A DNA stretch of 27,400 bases from the IMG/VR virus record IMGVR_UViG_3300010376_000866, positions 1 through 27,400 of that record; one strand, 5' to 3'. The notes under the pieces are model-generated. The model worked only from the letters and a program-made list of their open reading frames with translations, was not told the origin of the DNA and did no database searches. The DNA is from a virus (lineage: Duplodnaviria; Caudoviricetes). The translations under genes and the position numbers were made by a program. Shown piece after piece: positions 16,038 to 26,659 of this stretch. The number at the start of each line of letters is the position of its first letter. The first letter of the stretch is position 1.

Positions 16038-17387
16038 ATGTCTCGTAATACTCCCTGGCGCACCACCAGGTCGCTGATGGCACTCCACAGGGGAGGGCCG
16101 GGCACTGACTGGTACAGAATCAAGAACCAGGTCAGTGGCGGTCCAACCCAGGTGCACATCTACGATGAGATCGGCTACTTTGGCGTCGGTGCCATGGCGC
16201 TGATCCGCGACCTGGCGGACGTACAGGGACCGATCGACGTCCACATCAACTCGCCAGGTGGCGAGGTGTTTGAGGGGCTGACCATCTACAATGCTCTGAT
16301 GCAGCGTAAGGATGTTACCGTCTACATTGATGGTCTCTGCGCTTCCATCGCTTCTGTCATCGCAATGGCCGGTAATCCAGTGCTCATGGCGCGCCAAGGC
16401 ACGCTGATGATTCACGAGGGGCACGCCATGGCTATTGGCAACGCTCAGGACCTTCGGGACCTGGCGGAGCAGGTTGATCGGCAGTCCAACAACATCGCCA
16501 CCATATACAGTGAGCACACCGGCAAGCCAGTTGCTTTCTGGCGTGATCTGATGAAGGCCGAAACTTGGATGTCGGCTGACGAGGCCATCGGCCACGGCCT
16601 GGTTGACAGGCTGGTTGACTCTGGGGCAGGAAGGGTCCCTGCGGCTGTCAGCGACAGCTGGGACCTGAGTCAGTTTCGGAACTCGACCAAGCTAACCAAT
16701 ACGCGTAATGCGGCGAGCCACCCGTATGTCGGCCATAGCGATCACATGCACGAGCCGATGCGGGGGCTCCACTCACACAACCATGCTGCCTTCGGGCACG
16801 AGGATGGCGATGACGGTATCCACAATCACTCGCACAGCCATGACGGAGATGCCTCTCACGGCCACGGTCATGTTACGCATGTACATGATCACGAGCACGA
16901 AGGGGAGCACATCCATGCTCATGACGCGGGCGAGAATGACTGGGGAGAGCACGGTCACGCGCACACGCACCACGCTGGATTCAATGACCATGACGGTGAT
17001 GAGGGCATGGAGAATAAGAACTCCAGTGCCGTATACAACCGTTCCAACGCTCTGCTTTTGGCTAAGTATCCCGAGGCGCGGTTCTATGCCAAGGACTACA
17101 GCCAGGATGAGCGTGACTCTATGGCCAAGTCGGGCGAGGCTTTGTCTGACGGGTCCTATCCCATCAAGACTTGCACGGACGCGCACAACGCCCGGCAGGC
17201 CTATGGGCGTTCCAACGAGGGTGACCGTAGCAAGGTCGCCTCTCACATCCGTAGTCGTGAGAAGGCATTGGGCGGGTGCGGTCGCGAGCCGTTCCAGTCC
17301 GGCACTGACGACTCCACAGACCTGGTCATCGATGACGCCTTCATGACCAGTTTCCAGAACAGCCTACGGGCACTGAGAGGAGTGTAG
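16038..17387 (+). CDS. ClpP-type prohead protease with His-rich insert and C-terminal extra domain
   Basis: VHINSPGGEVFEG, GLCASIAS (Ser), MIHE (His), ETWMSADEA; His tract 16719-16991. Confidence 0.92.
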   Translation: MSRNTPWRTTRSLMALHRGGPGTDWYRIKNQVSGGPTQVHIYDEIGYFGVGAMALIRDLADVQGPIDVHINSPGGEVFEGLTIYNALMQRKDVTVYIDGLCASIASVIAMAGNPVLMARQGTLMIHEGHAMAIGNAQDLRDLAEQVDRQSNNIATIYSEHTGKPVAFWRDLMKAETWMSADEAIGHGLVDRLVDSGAGRVPAAVSDSWDLSQFRNSTKLTNTRNAASHPYVGHSDHMHEPMRGLHSHNHAAFGHEDGDDGIHNHSHSHDGDASHGHGHVTHVHDHEHEGEHIHAHDAGENDWGEHGHAHTHHAGFNDHDGDEGMENKNSSAVYNRSNALLLAKYPEARFYAKDYSQDERDSMAKSGEALSDGSYPIKTCTDAHNARQAYGRSNEGDRSKVASHIRSREKALGGCGREPFQSGTDDSTDLVIDDAFMTSFQNSLRALRGV

Positions 17388-17390
17388 TAC

Positions 17391-18809
17391 ATGGCGCCAA
17401 CCAAGGTCCGGACGGCTGAGGAACTGGAGGATTTCATCTCCGACCCGTCCAACGTCCGGAAGCTCATGAGCGAGCCTGGAGAGTTCAAGAACTATATCCA
17501 GGAGTACGCACAGAGGATCGTGGACCGCGATGTGGCCATGAAGAACCAGGTCACGGAGCAGGTCCAGCTGACCATGCAGGAGTTCCTGCGTGACAACGGC
17601 TTTGAGCGCGAGCGGCGTCTGGACATCAGCAACAATGTTCAGGCCCCCGGCTTCGGCATGGCTAACAACCAGCGGCGTGTCTCGCATGGCAAGGGGGCCG
17701 TCTACAACAAGGCGTCCTACGGCGCCAAGGTCGAGCAGGAGATGGGCTCGGATGCATTCGAGTCTACTGCTGAGTTCTTCCAGGCCTGCTGGCCGCGCTA
17801 TGAGACGCTGCGCAACGCTGAGACACTTGGTCGCAAGCGTGCGGCGGCTCTCAAAATCCAGAACAGCTACGGCTCTGAGGTTCCCGCTGACGGTGGGTTC
17901 CTGATTCCGGAGACGCTGCGATCTGGCATCCTTCAGGTCGCACTGGAGTCGGCGGTTGTCCGGCCCCGTGCGCAGGTCATCCCGATGGACTCGCTCCGTG
18001 TGCCCATCCCGATGATCGATGTGACAAGCAACGTGTCCAGCATCTTCGGAGGCGTGGTTTGCTACTGGACAGAAGAGGCCGCGCAGCTTGTCGAGTCTCA
18101 GGCCACCTTCGGCCGCGTCGTCCTTGACGCCAAGAAGCTGACTGGGTATGCTGAAGTGCCGAACGAGCTGCTTGCGGACGCCCCGGCGTTCTCCAGCTTC
18201 TTCGACAACGTCTTCCCCAGGGCTATCGCCTGGTTCGAGGACATCGGATTCATCACCGGAACCGGCGTGGGGGAGCCTCTGGGCTTCGTCAACTGCCCGG
18301 CTTCCGTCGCGGTTGCTTCTGAGTCCGGCCAGGCCACGAAGACCATCGTCTGGGAGAACATCGTCAAGATGTACGCCCGCATGCTTCCGACGGCTCTGGG
18401 CTCGGCGGTCTGGATTGCTTCCATCGATACCTTCCCTGAGCTGGCCACTATGGCTCTTTCGGTTGGTACTGGTGGCGGACCGGTCTGGATCGGCAACTTC
18501 GCCGGTGGCCAGGGCGGTGCGCAGTCCCCGCCTGTCACGATCCTCGGGCGGCCGGTGTTCTTCACTGAGAAGACCCCGGCTCTTGGCACCACGGGTGACA
18601 TCAACTTCGTGGACTTGTCGTACTACCTCATCGGCGACCGCCAGATGATGCAGACGGCATCGAGCGAGCAGTACAAGTTCCAGAATGACAAGACCGCGTT
18701 CCGTGTCATCGAGCGTGTTGACGGGCGTCCGTGGTTGCAGTCAGCCATCACTCCCCACAACAACAGCACCAACACCCTCACTGCGTTCGTCCAGCTTGCC
18801 AGCCGGTAA
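17391..18809 (+). CDS. Major capsid protein (HK97 fold, N-terminal scaffold region)
   Basis: DGGFLIPE, WTEEA, LDAKKL, GTGVGEPLG, TILGRPV, DLSYYLIGDR, RVDGRP. Confidence 0.95.
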   Translation: MAPTKVRTAEELEDFISDPSNVRKLMSEPGEFKNYIQEYAQRIVDRDVAMKNQVTEQVQLTMQEFLRDNGFERERRLDISNNVQAPGFGMANNQRRVSHGKGAVYNKASYGAKVEQEMGSDAFESTAEFFQACWPRYETLRNAETLGRKRAAALKIQNSYGSEVPADGGFLIPETLRSGILQVALESAVVRPRAQVIPMDSLRVPIPMIDVTSNVSSIFGGVVCYWTEEAAQLVESQATFGRVVLDAKKLTGYAEVPNELLADAPAFSSFFDNVFPRAIAWFEDIGFITGTGVGEPLGFVNCPASVAVASESGQATKTIVWENIVKMYARMLPTALGSAVWIASIDTFPELATMALSVGTGGGPVWIGNFAGGQGGAQSPPVTILGRPVFFTEKTPALGTTGDINFVDLSYYLIGDRQMMQTASSEQYKFQNDKTAFRVIERVDGRPWLQSAITPHNNSTNTLTAFVQLASR

Positions 18810-19859: not shown

Positions 19860-20332
19860 TGTCCGCCAAACAACTCGTTGTGCCGGGAGTCCAGGTCGTC
19901 AAGAGCGCCCTGGCACTCCCGGCTACGGCCACAGCCAACTTGTTTGTGGTTACGGGCGCTGTCCTGGTAACGGGAATTCTCGGCCGCGTGACCACTGCAA
20001 CAGGCGCCACGGCGACTACGCTAGCGCTTGGGACTACTGGTTCAACCACAACCTCCCTCGCGACAGCTACCGCCATAACGAGCAAGGCAGCAGGCACCTG
20101 GATCTATCAGACTATTGCCTCTACCGCGTTCGCGGCGCTTACGGTAGTATCCGCCCCAGCGCCGCTAATTACCACGTATCCGGTTTCTGGAGAACTTCAG
20201 CTGCCTGGTCTTGTGGCGCCCTTCCTGATAGCAAATGATACCATCACCTGGACTACCTCGGCGACGGACACAGGTAACATAACTTGGTACTTGTGGTACG
20301 CGCCGATTGACGCGGGAGCGGGGGTTGCCTGA
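19859..20332 (+). CDS. Thr/Ala-rich beta virion protein, paralog 2
   Basis: TGATG coupling; LPATATANLFVVTG...TGNITWYLWYAP. Confidence 0.75.
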   Translation: MSAKQLVVPGVQVVKSALALPATATANLFVVTGAVLVTGILGRVTTATGATATTLALGTTGSTTTSLATATAITSKAAGTWIYQTIASTAFAALTVVSAPAPLITTYPVSGELQLPGLVAPFLIANDTITWTTSATDTGNITWYLWYAPIDAGAGVA

Positions 20333-20505
20333 TGTGGGATTGTGAACACTGCGGCTGCCAGGCAATCGCAGGGAGTCTGGAGGATTGTCCTGTGTGCTGG
20401 AAGCCGAAGGGGTCTGCGGCGGTTCTGGCCGTAGAGGAGACTCCTGCGGAATCCACGGAAGTACCCGCTGGCAACGGCACATCTGATGACAAGAAAGGAT
20501 GGTGA
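20332..20505 (+). CDS. Small zinc-ribbon protein (RanBP2-like spacing, 57 aa)
   Basis: Below cutoff; TGATG coupling; MWDCEHCGCQAIAGSLEDCPVCWKPK. Confidence 0.7.
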   Translation: MWDCEHCGCQAIAGSLEDCPVCWKPKGSAAVLAVEETPAESTEVPAGNGTSDDKKGW

Positions 20506-20510
20506 CCCAG

Positions 20511-20657
20511 ATGGCAAAGATTACCGCTTGGGGAATCACCAACAACCAGGTGAACAACGAGCCACAGTCGGCTAATGCAGCAAACAGCCAGGTCAGCGAG
20601 GCTGTTGCTCATACCGGCAAGGTCCACCTGATCGCTTCGCAGGCAAGGCCATCCTAG
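20511..20657 (+). CDS. Hypothetical protein (48 aa)
   Basis: Below cutoff; MAKITAWGITNNQ...; GGATGGTGA upstream; fills the gap exactly. Confidence 0.6.
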   Translation: MAKITAWGITNNQVNNEPQSANAANSQVSEAVAHTGKVHLIASQARPS

Positions 20658-20658
20658 C

Positions 20659-21225
20659 ATGCCGAGCGCGACCGATGCTGGAGCCGCTAACGGCCTTGAG
20701 GCCAAGTGGGCTCAGTACTATGCAGACAATGCACCACCGGAGCCGGTGATGCAGCAGGCACCTGAGGAGGAGCCATCAGCTGGTACCAGCTCCTTGACAT
20801 CCGCAAGCACGCCCGACAAGAGTGGATCCTCAGCCCAGGCAACGGAATCACCCCTCCAGTCGCCTGCCCCCGCTGCGGAGAACCCCTCCTCAACGGACCA
20901 ACCAGCGGACCCAGCCCCATCCTCTACTGCCGATTTGACTTCTGGCAGTACCCAAGAGACTGGACCCAGCCCAGCCGACCAGCCGGACTCTTCGGTGGAC
21001 TCTCCAGCGAAGACAGAAACTACGCCGGCCCCTACTGACGACGCACCAAGGCTCATGGCCGAAGGACTTGTCGATGACGCCCGTACGGCGTACAACAACA
21101 AGGACTACGCCCTGGCCAATGATCTGATCAACAAGGCAGAGCAGGTCTATCCACAGATAGCAGAGACCACCGGCGCGGCTCACAAGGCCATCGACGCGGC
21201 TCTGGCTCAGCCCAAGACAATTTAA
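20659..21225 (+). CDS. Hypothetical protein with Ser/Pro/Thr-rich middle and helical C-terminus
   Basis: 188-aa ORF; the low-complexity part coincides with the nested frame. Confidence 0.65.
   Translation: MPSATDAGAANGLEAKWAQYYADNAPPEPVMQQAPEEEPSAGTSSLTSASTPDKSGSSAQATESPLQSPAPAAENPSSTDQPADPAPSSTADLTSGSTQETGPSPADQPDSSVDSPAKTETTPAPTDDAPRLMAEGLVDDARTAYNNKDYALANDLINKAEQVYPQIAETTGAAHKAIDAALAQPKTI
20775..21038 (+). CDS. Nested overlapping zinc-ribbon-like protein with ATC start (87 aa)
   Basis: GAGGAGGAGCC-ATC; ISWYQLLDIRKHARQEW..PPVACPRCGEPL..LYCRFDFWQYPRDW; mostly C-ending codons; in-frame TGA at 20763 upstream. Confidence 0.7.
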   Translation: MSWYQLLDIRKHARQEWILSPGNGITPPVACPRCGEPLLNGPTSGPSPILYCRFDFWQYPRDWTQPSRPAGLFGGLSSEDRNYAGPY

Positions 21226-21286: not shown

Positions 21287-22390
21287 ATGGCCGTCATCAC
21301 TAGGCCGTGCTATTGCACGCGCGAAGAGGCACGCCGCGCGGCAGACATTCAGCTGGCGTCCTACTCAGACGCTAAGCTCGACCGGGCGATTCATTCTGCG
21401 TCGTCTGATGTCGACAGGTTGTGCATGCGCAACTTCATGCTGATTGACAAGACGGTCCACTTTGACTGGCCAAACTACCAGTATGCTTATCCCTGGCGTC
21501 TCTGGTTCGACGCGGCTGAGCTAGCTGATGTAACGGTAAACCCTCCTGTGGTTAATTCCGGCGGGGTTGTAATCCCGAACTCGGCGATATTCTGGGGCGA
21601 CCCAAACTACCCTGAGCCACCTTTCACATACTTGGAACTGGACCGATCCAAGAACTACAGCTTTGGTAATGGGCCGACCCCGCAGCGTGAAGTTGCCATC
21701 ACTGGCTCTTTCGGATACTGGCGGGTTACTGAGCAGGCCGGTACGCTCGCTGCAGCTATTACTGATACAGTCAGTCAATCTGTCACTGTTAGCGACGGGC
21801 ACACCCCTGGTGTCGGCGACATGATGTTTGTCGACAACGAGCGCATGCTGGTGACCAACTCAAGTTTTGCTAGCTTGAGTCTGGGATTCACGGCCGGCAT
21901 AACCTCTGCCTTTGCTTCTGATAACAGCGGGACTACTGCTGCGACCCTGGTCCCTGATGAGGTTATCTCGGTTGATCAGGAGTTCATGTTGGTGCAGCAG
22001 GTTAGCCCCTTCCTTGTAATCAAAAGAGCTTGGGGCGGTTCGACGCTAGCTAGTCACGCTGCAAACACACCGATCTATGCTAGGCGACAGCTCACAGTTA
22101 ACAGAGGTGTGAACGGGAGCACGGCTGCTACCCACAGCAACTCTGCTGCCGTTAGCATATTGTCGATTCCTGCCCCGGTCAAGCAACTTGCGATAGCTGA
22201 ATCCATCGTGTTTCTGACGCAAGAGGCTAGCTCCTATAGCGCAATCCAGACCCGTGTGTCCGAGGATAGCGCACTGGGCGGTACCGGCCGCTCGGCTATC
22301 CGCGAGCCACAGCCGGGAGCCGGACTGGACACCTTGAGATTTGAGGTTGTCCAGGGCTACGGACGGCAGGCAAGGAGTCGAGTGATATGA
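21287..22390 (+). CDS. Head-to-tail adaptor with inserted beta domains
   Basis: YCTREE..LDRAIHSAS..VDRLCMRNF, ITGSFGY, PAPVKQLA; duplicated VD.E.MLV / R...GST.A.H inserts. Confidence 0.75.
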   Translation: MAVITRPCYCTREEARRAADIQLASYSDAKLDRAIHSASSDVDRLCMRNFMLIDKTVHFDWPNYQYAYPWRLWFDAAELADVTVNPPVVNSGGVVIPNSAIFWGDPNYPEPPFTYLELDRSKNYSFGNGPTPQREVAITGSFGYWRVTEQAGTLAAAITDTVSQSVTVSDGHTPGVGDMMFVDNERMLVTNSSFASLSLGFTAGITSAFASDNSGTTAATLVPDEVISVDQEFMLVQQVSPFLVIKRAWGGSTLASHAANTPIYARRQLTVNRGVNGSTAATHSNSAAVSILSIPAPVKQLAIAESIVFLTQEASSYSAIQTRVSEDSALGGTGRSAIREPQPGAGLDTLRFEVVQGYGRQARSRVI

Positions 22391-22737
22391 CGAAGGCAAT
22401 CCTGATTGGCATATCGTCTGCTTGCTTTGTGATACTCTTCTGGGTTGGGATGTACTTCCTCTTCAAGGTAACTGGCGGCGAAAATCAGGCCAGTGGGATG
22501 TACGGTTTCACGTCTGGCCCCGGTCCCATGATCCTGACTGCTATCGGGATGGGTTCTATCGTGGGTAGTCTCTGGCACAACCTGAACTGCCATAAGCCTG
22601 GTTGCTGGAACATGGGGAAGCACAAGGTCAACGGGACCCCGTGGTGTAACGTACATCATGAAGAGGCTAGGCACGAGAAGACCCAGGAGCAGCTGCTATC
22701 TGAAATTCTGGAGGTGCTACGTGCCGATAGAGGGTAA
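22387..22737 (+). CDS. Two-TM membrane protein with Cys/His C-terminal motif
   Basis: ATGA overlap; NCHKPGCWNMGKH..WCNVHH. Confidence 0.75.
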   Translation: MTKAILIGISSACFVILFWVGMYFLFKVTGGENQASGMYGFTSGPGPMILTAIGMGSIVGSLWHNLNCHKPGCWNMGKHKVNGTPWCNVHHEEARHEKTQEQLLSEILEVLRADRG

Positions 22738-23098
22738 CAAGACTGGCCATCGCAATATGGCCGTAGTTTGCTGGGTAGCCTCCTGGATTCTGGCTATCGT
22801 CGGGGGCATGCTGTTTGCTGTGTTTGAGAACATTGGATGGGACCGGGGGATCTACTGGGCCCTGACAACTGTTACCACAGTGGGGTACGGCGACATAACT
22901 CCTCACAACTTGATGGGATATGTAATTGCCGACTCGACTATGGTACTGACTATTCCGATCTGGTCTGTAGCCATAGCATTCGCTACCTCGTGGTTTACAT
23001 CCTGGCACATCTGGGATTCTCATGATCAGCAGATTGCTGATCGAAGAAACATGCACGAGCAGACGCAAGCGCACATCTCCTCGGTGGTGAACCCTTGA
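22721..23098 (+). CDS. Two-TM potassium channel (KcsA-like, Ion_trans_2)
   Basis: GGAGG-6nt-GTG; TM1, pore helix IYWALTTVT, filter TVGYGD (22877-22894), TM2. Confidence 0.9.
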   Translation: MPIEGNKTGHRNMAVVCWVASWILAIVGGMLFAVFENIGWDRGIYWALTTVTTVGYGDITPHNLMGYVIADSTMVLTIPIWSVAIAFATSWFTSWHIWDSHDQQIADRRNMHEQTQAHISSVVNP

Positions 23099-25749: not shown

Positions 25750-26187
25750 ATGGCCAAGGTCAGTGGTCTCGGTGGCGTCATAACCATCGCAGACAGTACG
25801 GGCACCAATCAGGTGCTCTCGGGTTCCAACTCGGATGACATCACCAACTTCTCCCTGACGACCCCGAGGGGCGTCCAGGAGACTACGGGTATTAACAAGT
25901 CTGCGATTGAGCGCTTGCTCCTTCTCGCGGACACCAGCGTCACTCTCAATGGCGTGTTCAACTCATCGGTCATCTCCGGGTTCGGAGCCAGCCATGAGGT
26001 GTTTGCCACTGTGCCGAGCACATCGGTAGCTCGTGCTAGTATCTTCAGCGTTACTAGCACAACGAGCCCAAAGCTGACGGGCAACATTTACTACAGCGAC
26101 TACCAGATCACAAGAGCCAATACCGGGGAGTTGACCTGGCAGGTGCCGGGCGCGCTCGCCGATGGCGCAGTTCCAACCTGGTCCTAG
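25750..26187 (+). CDS. Major tail (tube) protein
   Basis: MAKVSGLG, DITNF, ETTGI..ERLLLLAD, YQITRANTGEL, DGAVPTW; directly upstream of the chaperone. Confidence 0.75.
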   Translation: MAKVSGLGGVITIADSTGTNQVLSGSNSDDITNFSLTTPRGVQETTGINKSAIERLLLLADTSVTLNGVFNSSVISGFGASHEVFATVPSTSVARASIFSVTSTTSPKLTGNIYYSDYQITRANTGELTWQVPGALADGAVPTWS

Positions 26188-26245
26188 AGTACCAGGCTCT
26201 CAGTTATACTGGTATTCTGGGCCGACCACCAGAAAGGAAGAGGAA

Positions 26246-26659
26246 GTGTTTGTACCGCAGAAGACTGTGTACAACCTTCACTTTGAGGATGAGTCACTGT
26301 CTGAACTTGAAGTGAAGGTGAATGCGTGCTCGGTCGAGGAGTTCAATCAGATTGTGGCCGACTCTGTCCTCGTCGGGCAGGAAGCGCTGGAAGCTGCCAA
26401 CGGACTCATCGCCCTATTCGTGTCCAACCTCGTGTCCTGGAACATTTCCCTTGACGGAGAGAACCTTCTGCCGAAGACGGTTGACTCCATTAAGAAACTG
26501 GACCAGCCGCTCGTTGTACGTCTGATCTCGTCATGGCAGGCGGCGATGATGACTATCCCAAATCCCTCGAATCGGAAATCCTCCTCTGGCGGAATTTCCG
26601 AGGAGCTATCACTCGGACTGGCGAACGGGTCCGTAAGCCAGCCGAGTTGGCCGCAGTAG
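26246..26659 (+). CDS. Tail assembly chaperone (gpG-like)
   Basis: GTG after AAAGGAAGAGGAA; LVSWNI motif; lies between tail tube and tape measure. Confidence 0.85.
   Translation: MFVPQKTVYNLHFEDESLSELEVKVNACSVEEFNQIVADSVLVGQEALEAANGLIALFVSNLVSWNISLDGENLLPKTVDSIKKLDQPLVVRLISSWQAAMMTIPNPSNRKSSSGGISEELSLGLANGSVSQPSWPQ

Follow-up and report, generated by a model that had tools for sequence, protein, structure and literature searches.

An 87-codon gene with a probable AUC start nested within a second reading frame in the head module of a putative actinomycete phage

The window analyzed here is a complete virus record of 27.4 kb. Its plus strand carries a head module comprising, in order, genes for a terminase, a portal, a Clp-type protease and an HK97-type capsid protein (17391..18809; capsid-motif residues about 158-173), small genes, and a head-tail adaptor-like gene of 367 aa (21287..22390). 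The adaptor-like gene is the constant downstream neighbour of the gene pair described below: it lies within about 2 kb downstream in 180 of 200 loci and in eight of nine fused forms, with phrog_442 found in 59 of 111 homologues. The relatives of the pair are prophages of Streptomyces, Nonomuraea, Kitasatospora, Actinomadura and other actinomycetes, as well as uncultured soil-type viral contigs; thus, the window phage probably infects an actinomycete. The Clp-type head protease (16038-17387) has a long His-rich insert behind the protease domain, and two genes, one potassium-channel-like (phrog_14690; 22658-23098) and one for a small membrane protein (22387-22737), are inserted between the adaptor and tail genes. 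All 15 plus-strand genes terminate at normal stops and together contain a single TTA codon, at codon 15 of ORF 26162-26659, the start of which is uncertain. A scan for promoters and terminators gave a signal at chance level.

The pair lies on the plus strand within the head module, between the capsid and adaptor-like genes. Its outer member (20659..21225, 188 aa), whose ATG is separated by a single base from the TAG that precedes it (20655-20657), encodes a diverged copy of the family N-terminal motif M[PA][KR][IAV][TS]xxGGx[STN]N (20659..20694), an acidic linker, an overprinted Ser/Thr/Pro stretch and a TPR-like three-helix tail (21040..21222). It is preceded on the same strand by a small Cys-rich ORF (20332..20505) and by a short ORF (20511..20657) that carries the N-terminal motif once more (MAKITAWGITNN, MAKIT). 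These two upstream ORFs usually form one ORF in relatives, in many of which a similar CxxC..CPxC segment is fused before the N-terminal motif; the Cys-rich ORF is not homologous to the inner protein. The inner gene (20775..21038, plus strand) encodes 87 aa, an amphipathic helix (residues 3-19) followed by a CPxCGEP..CxxD zinc-ribbon-like part, and ends with TGA at 21036-21038. As originally predicted, it occupies the -1 frame of the outer ORF and lies wholly inside it; an in-frame TGA three codons 5' of the ATC (20763..20765) closes the frame upstream; the frame contains neither ATG, GTG nor TTG, and CTG is absent too; and the outer ORF runs past the inner stop with a helical tail of its own. 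The near-cognate start ATC (20775..20777) is read in the outer frame as TCA (Ser), and an ATG there would create an outer TGA. It is preceded by the Shine-Dalgarno (SD) sequence GAGGAGGAG (20764..20772), likewise predicted, in which GGAGG stands 4 nt ahead of the ATC and which encodes Glu-Glu-Glu in the outer frame.

A search for homologues of the inner frame, suggested with the original prediction, returned 17 proteins with a word-indexed query and, in addition, 559 cluster representatives at E<=0.001. The frame is no chance ORF and is under purifying selection, with pN/pS of 0.31 in 31 disjoint nested pairs and 0.25 in 10 un-nested pairs. The companion expectation of selection in both frames held in another form for the outer one: its pN/pS in the overlap is 1.6, against 1.72 in the un-nested control, and its constraint appears in codon exclusion and composition. 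Four variants fall within the overlap in contigs of three sequencing runs, one of which is possibly the source of the record; the inner protein is unchanged by three of them, and each of the four alters an outer residue. The letters at 20775-20777 do not vary in these contigs, and ATC stands at the Met position in 175 of 322 distinct loci of both census sets described below; therefore, the ATC is not an assembly error. The inner gene was also said to share the phage's C-ending codon bias. It is indeed C-rich at third positions (C 54, A 19, G 9 and T 4 of 86), but this is not the general bias of the phage (C 36% and G 32% in 10 large window genes). None of its 43 four-fold sites ends in G, against 30% expected (p=3e-7), and the bias is what the overlap has imprinted. 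Of the two frames the inner one is probably the older, and the change would have run from un-nested to nested, because the inner family is the more widely spread; the tree behind this question (FastTree of the neighbouring gene) is unrooted, and the start class changes 22 times on it.

Across 111 aligned loci, L6, C31, P32, G35, P37, L38, C52 and D55 of the inner protein are invariant and position 34 is C or D, so that both ligand knuckles of a zinc ribbon are conserved. The AlphaFold model (pLDDT 81) consists of a helix at residues 3-19 and a compact Cys-bearing part. Foldseek with this model found no match at E<=0.001; the best had E=1.0, and the weak ones were mostly zinc ribbons, as were the weak sequence matches. 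No family model fitted the window protein in Pfam and PHROG searches, a PDB sequence search named no family for it, and in a profile search with 35 family members no family was matched by more than two of them. The best ESM Atlas match is an unnamed viral cluster, with zinc-ribbon families as minority labels only. Inner homologues often begin with MSW or MAW. Among the 150 homologues listed, 43 were long enough to scan and have the inner domain near the C-terminus; in 18 of these it follows DUF4082 (14 proteins, 12 over the cut-off), laminin-G (three) or Spherulin4 (one). Two or three tandem inner domains occur in one group of homologues (P0021, P0030, P0033, P0036, P0037, P0039-P0041, P0055, P0103, P0105 and P0125).

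The suspicion that annotators would miss the gene was borne out, as for this window the protein collection contains the 188-aa outer ORF. Related inner proteins are seemingly mis-started upstream (e.g. P0005, P0020 and P0122), and an exact look-up of eight outer and one inner prophage proteins gave no matches. Among 50,697 cultured-phage records, the inner family is matched in Streptomyces phage Dagobah only, and a plasmid search for the family found none.

Start codons were compared in two censuses, in which loci were ranked by likeness to the queries and at most the best 80 per scan were taken, so that the counts are not population frequencies. The first (IMG/VR, GTDB and Dagobah; seven ORF matches without an anchor dropped) comprises 200 distinct anchored loci, the window included: 113 with ATC, 9 ACG, 1 ATT, 32 ATG, 26 GTG, 3 TTG and 16 other. 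For the second, 240 loci were drawn, of which 111 duplicates and a further 7 were dropped; the 122 new distinct loci have ATC in 62, ACG in 8 (three set aside as an internal Thr behind a canonical start), ATG in 18, GTG in 14 and other forms in 20. Most 'other' rows of the first set represent fusions or N-terminally extended proteins, and in three of these rows SD and ATC are shifted upstream; the two shift together with N-terminal extensions (L018, L097, L160, L434 and L499). The residue encoded at the Met position varies (Ile, Thr, Met, Val or Leu), and the position and the SD are constant. No canonical start occurs back to the in-frame stop in 100 of 123 near-cognate loci of the first set and in 57 of 67 of the second. 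A canonical start within 10 codons was found in 9 of the 123, mostly a GTG inside the SD; such a GTG, four codons upstream, is present in five ACG loci and one ATC locus. One locus whose true start is probably an upstream GTG (L090) was retained in the counts. An HMM search of 401 Streptomyces genomes, with 15 candidates scored in each, gave nine strong matches, seven of them already in the set; weak matches (E>1e-6; 24 genomes and a second match in one) were left out of the family.

SD pairing energies were calculated with what we take to be the anti-SD string. The median in the first census is -12.8 kcal/mol for near-cognate starts, -7.8 for canonical starts and -4.1 for 1845 control ATC triplets; in the second it is -12.6 for near-cognate and -8.9 kcal/mol for canonical starts. 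The window SD (-11.5 kcal/mol) is the strongest of the 15 plus-strand gene starts scored and ranks 4 of 426 among plus-strand ATC triplets. In all five prophage-bearing genomes compared, the host infC start reads GGAGG-N4-ATC AGC and equals the window context, so that the near-cognate codon stands at the canonical spacing from a strong SD, as at infC. According to the accessible part of PMC5472188, ATC is the start codon of infC in Streptomyces, non-canonical starts are subject to IF3 repression in S. coelicolor, and sigR is expressed less when IF3 is raised and more in infC* mutants. With the start-like codons at this position, a strong conserved SD and the census, the proposed initiation at AUC gains support, and the inner gene is likely translated from its ATC.

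The outer frame, too, appears to be read. Its N-terminal motif is present in 103 of 123 loci by a loose pattern, and the inner ORF lies wholly inside the outer ORF in 109 of 123 near-cognate loci of the first set and 57 of 67 of the second; an outer stop falls within the inner gene in 14 of the 123. Of 109 nested loci, 74 have an outer ORF whose end is no more than nine codons from the inner stop, against 16 of 109 for the third frame. A tail of at least 50 codons past the inner stop, aligning as a TPR-like unit, is found in 24 of the 109; its TPR profile matches are below the cut-off, and its TM of 0.8 to TPR proteins is under the tool's bar for naming. A homologue search with the window tail returned only itself, the tail homologues being found via the loci. 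Among Leu and Val codons of the inner gene, CTG, GTG and TTG make up 2 of 810 in nested loci and 202 of 395 in un-nested loci, whatever base follows; the corresponding counts in the second set are 4 of 446, the four belonging to a single locus, and 133 of 245. Their usage is normal in the adaptor genes on the same contigs. Where an internal outer stop occurs, NTG codons number 0 of 58 before it and 9 of 22 after it (p=2e-6); for G-ending four-fold codons as a whole, no increase is seen beyond the stop (p=0.9). The outer frame has 0.17 Cys and Trp per nested locus, against 2.8 expected, and is open in 102 of 115 nested loci against 55.8 expected, the loci being related; in 18 tree-independent pairs, taken with an unrooted FastTree tree of the adaptor protein (159 rows), the median p is 1e-4 for the NTG ban and 1e-3 for the open frame. 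The ban is obeyed even where a nested gene begins canonically: the six loci of this kind (L107, L116, L118, L180, L209 and L239) have an outer Trp at the start and no internal NTG and are natural controls. Since its pN/pS of 1.6 resembles the un-nested value and the constraint lies in composition only, the outer overlap is best described as a compositionally constrained linker. The N-terminal motif, the TPR-like tail and the NTG ban agree with the predicted use of both frames, and the Ser/Pro/Thr filler of the outer frame does look like an overprint of the inner gene.

These data bear on three alternatives to a nested pair with both frames translated. In one, only the inner gene would be translated here, and the outer ORF would be two genes, a short one for the N-terminus and another for the tail, that are joined on paper. 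An ATG at 21056 could start such a tail gene, the overlap pN/pS is the passive value, and in the window alone an outer frame open by chance has a probability of 0.20 with window codon usage or 0.07 with adaptor codon usage, which is not significant; however, there is no stop between the two pieces, a canonical start close to the tail is missing from 6 of the 24 long-tail loci, among them the close relative L002, and the NTG ban and the depletion of Cys, Trp and Arg follow outer translation, which makes this explanation very improbable. Still less probable is a programmed -1 frameshift that would reach the inner frame from the outer ORF and yield a fusion. It would accommodate the SD-like purines upstream of the ATC, and the inner domain does exist fused behind other domains, but the site near GAG CCA TCA put forward as an alternative contains no slippery sequence. 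Such a shift was rejected as a tandem slip site, expected to be conserved where both frames are open, occurs in 1 of 123 near-cognate loci only. Moreover, an in-frame stop falls within two codons of the ATC in 53 loci, in one of which -1 re-pairing is possible; the A-T/C-C letters of the start are fixed while flanking bases vary; and no stimulatory RNA structure was found at the inner start, where folding is not unusual (z -0.15). That the inner gene is a silenced relic that lost its start, or its ATC an artefact, would explain the absence of a canonical start; this is the least credible of the three, given the pN/pS of 0.31 in nested pairs, the invariant Cys, Pro and Asp residues behind a conserved strong SD, and the identical letters in contigs of three runs.

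Thus, our favoured reading (probability roughly 0.66) is a nested 87-codon gene that would be initiated at AUC under the lead of its SD, with the outer frame also read and the ATC imposed by the overlap. It rests on sequence comparison and can be described as two states of one locus. In the separated state, the upstream 'MPKIT' gene, usually SAP-ended, would stop at or just before the ATG or GTG of the inner gene; ATGA or GTGA overlaps of this kind occur in L100, L101, L105, L109, L162, L168, L211 and Dagobah, and Pfam places a SAP domain over the cut-off in six of seven upstream proteins so coupled. A SAP-like end on the MPKIT-motif protein was seen in the separated loci L072, L078, L086, L100, L101, L105, L109 and L110, and the same ending in L115, L142, L147, L150, L162, L168, L183 and L184; no SAP domain was seen in the nested forms inspected. 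In the nested state, the 'MPKIT' gene, without SAP, would run through the inner gene in +1, usually ending within nine codons of the inner stop, and the Ser/Thr/Pro stretch would therefore be an overprint. The inner start codon would then fall under the same exclusion as every other NTG of the nested gene, since each of ATG, GTG, TTG and CTG places TG-N in the outer frame, that is a stop, Cys or Trp; with the usual second codon AGC, a canonical start gives an outer TGA. ATC, ACG and ATT are the near-cognates that would escape TG-N. A stronger SD may compensate for the near-cognate codon, thereby recreating the host infC start, and the inner output is predicted to be below that of an ATG allele and IF3-sensitive as a by-product; the lower output might be tolerated because the product is probably a low-copy part of the virion.

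Near-cognate starts lie under an outer ORF in 122 of 123 loci of the first set and in all 67 of the second, against 26 of 61 canonical starts; the sole exception probably has a real GTG start. Canonical starts are NTG codons, and CTG, which initiates like AUC in E. coli (bioRxiv 10.1101/063800, accessible part), is absent among the near-cognate starts of either set; hence the overlap has most likely dictated the ATC, with the SD making up for it, and selection of the codon as an IF3 dial is the less likely account. A rival reading, which we consider unlikely, holds that the AUC itself was selected, the phage copying the host infC start for a low or IF3-tied virion protein; nesting would in addition abolish stop-start coupling. 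In its favour are the identical infC context in five of five host genomes, the repression of non-canonical starts by S. coelicolor IF3 (PMC5472188, accessible part), the ATC in all nine strong Streptomyces matches, and the retention of ATC or ACG in 56 of 123 loci where ATG would make no stop. Against it, canonical starts serve 61 of 184 relatives, no convincing near-cognate start is un-nested, CTG is absent though about as weak as AUC in E. coli and one step from ATG, GTG and TTG, and the SD is stronger, not weaker. The proposal of a deliberately low, IF3-sensitive start is therefore plausible in that the host infC context is the same, but a codon imposed by the overlap with a strong SD fits better. 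Imposition by the overlap is not absolute, because ATG at the nested near-cognate starts would give an outer stop in 67 of the 123 loci but Cys in 40 and Trp in 16, and the six nested loci with canonical starts tolerate Trp. The loss of output with AUU/AUC is reported as 50-100 fold in one E. coli study (bioRxiv 10.1101/063800) and as 6-8 fold in another (PMC3592434), both accessible in part. Some selection for low inner output may be needed besides the overlap, because one linker residue seems to cost little beside a start that would be 6- to 100-fold stronger by these E. coli figures. Less probable again is the bolder form, in which this actinobacterial phage family copied the infC start box and the hidden virion protein is IF3-gated; if so, the translation-initiation state of the host would set virion assembly or decoration.

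The inner protein had been proposed to be a head-completion factor. This assignment found no support, since PHROG and Pfam gave no match to adaptor or stopper profiles, phrog_442 being the next gene, no family or structure was matched, and the inner domain also ends carbohydrate-binding-type proteins. Adaptor synteny and these fusions instead suggest a virion anchor at or near the neck. We give even odds to a small anchor that binds metal and docks close to the head-tail junction; it would act alone here and, in other phages, would tether carbohydrate-binding-type proteins by their C-terminus. The capsid protein's SEVPADGGFLIP motif recurs behind the inner gene in 26 near-cognate relatives but not in the window, whose outer protein lacks it; such copies point to a capsid link for the outer protein. 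The capsid motif (Y/F)GSEVPADGGFLIP, which we take by HK97 analogy to be the start of the mature capsid N-arm, lies at or near the outer C-terminus in 16 relatives (L004, L006, L007, L034, L035, L037, L040-L043, L048, L051-L053, L055 and L069). In 10 other loci (L009, L010, L013, L016, L033, L049, L054, L056, L065 and L081), a capsid-like motif stands in another frame after an A-run (mostly CCAAAA), just past the inner stop; seven would need +1 from the outer frame, and three -1 or read-through of the inner stop. The A-run is a candidate second recoding site.

Many other soil actinobacterial phages and prophages share the nested arrangement with ATC, as judged from the genomic sequences compared. 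To our knowledge, natural AUC or ACG starts are known for few bacterial genes; this one family comprises about 190 distinct phage loci with an AUC/ACG-type start. As the family also has canonical and un-nested forms, the costs of the overlap and of the weak start are directly comparable. A simple rule emerges, that a gene overlapped in +1 loses its NTG codons, the start codon included, and overprinting by stop loss can be followed with both end states in one family. A conserved protein of the virion module has been replaced in annotation by its Ser/Pro/Thr shadow, and standard gene calling would miss a nested ATC-started gene. Lysogens of named Streptomyces and other actinomycetes carry the family, which makes tests of initiation and of IF3 feasible.

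Several known systems resemble this one in part. The Rz/Rz1 embedded spanins of lambda are likewise same-strand genes of a tailed phage with one fully inside another frame, usually missed by gene callers, and the spanin paper (PMC6139136) envisions, in its accessible part, that the upstream gene loses its stop and acquires another immediately beyond the downstream gene, which is the pattern of the inner/outer pair. In contrast to the spanins, this pair belongs to the head module of actinobacterial phages and not to lysis, with neighbouring capsid and adaptor genes; neither protein has a lipoprotein or membrane signal; the start is near-cognate; and the structured partner is the inner gene. Embedded and separated forms coexist in one family here, whereas the spanin survey, as far as that part of PMC6139136 goes, found no such case. 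The infC (AUU/AUC) and Streptomyces sigR (GTC) genes also combine a strong SD with a near-cognate codon (PMC5472188 and PMC5499595, accessible parts), and sigR, like some loci here, has a misleading GTG within its ribosome binding site (PMC5472188, same part); the inner gene differs in being a viral structural-module gene that is not known to take part in a feedback loop and whose codon is seemingly tied to an overlapping frame. The hypothetical protein HUN42_00015 of Streptomyces phage Dagobah (MT711977) is a homologue with 47% identity to P0101 and is also encoded between capsid and adaptor-like genes, but it starts with ATG, which forms an ATGA overlap with the gene before it, an unrelated one, and is not nested; the accessible part of the Dagobah paper (PMC7650747) contains nothing on it. 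The zinc ribbons of L37Ae, RNA polymerase Rpb9/C11 and NudC share the CPxCG..CxxD/C spacing, whereas in the inner family the fourth ligand is usually Asp, the second often Asp, and the N-terminal helix and WQYPRD tail are specific. The accessible parts of PMC10732093 and PMC11302927 have nothing on the inner gene, and the open literature, as far as its text was accessible and with subscription papers and supplements outside the search, showed no description of the inner family, nor of any nested phage gene that is conserved and starts at AUC. Embedded phage genes and IF3-repressed starts are each known separately, and their conserved combination at this locus appears to be new.
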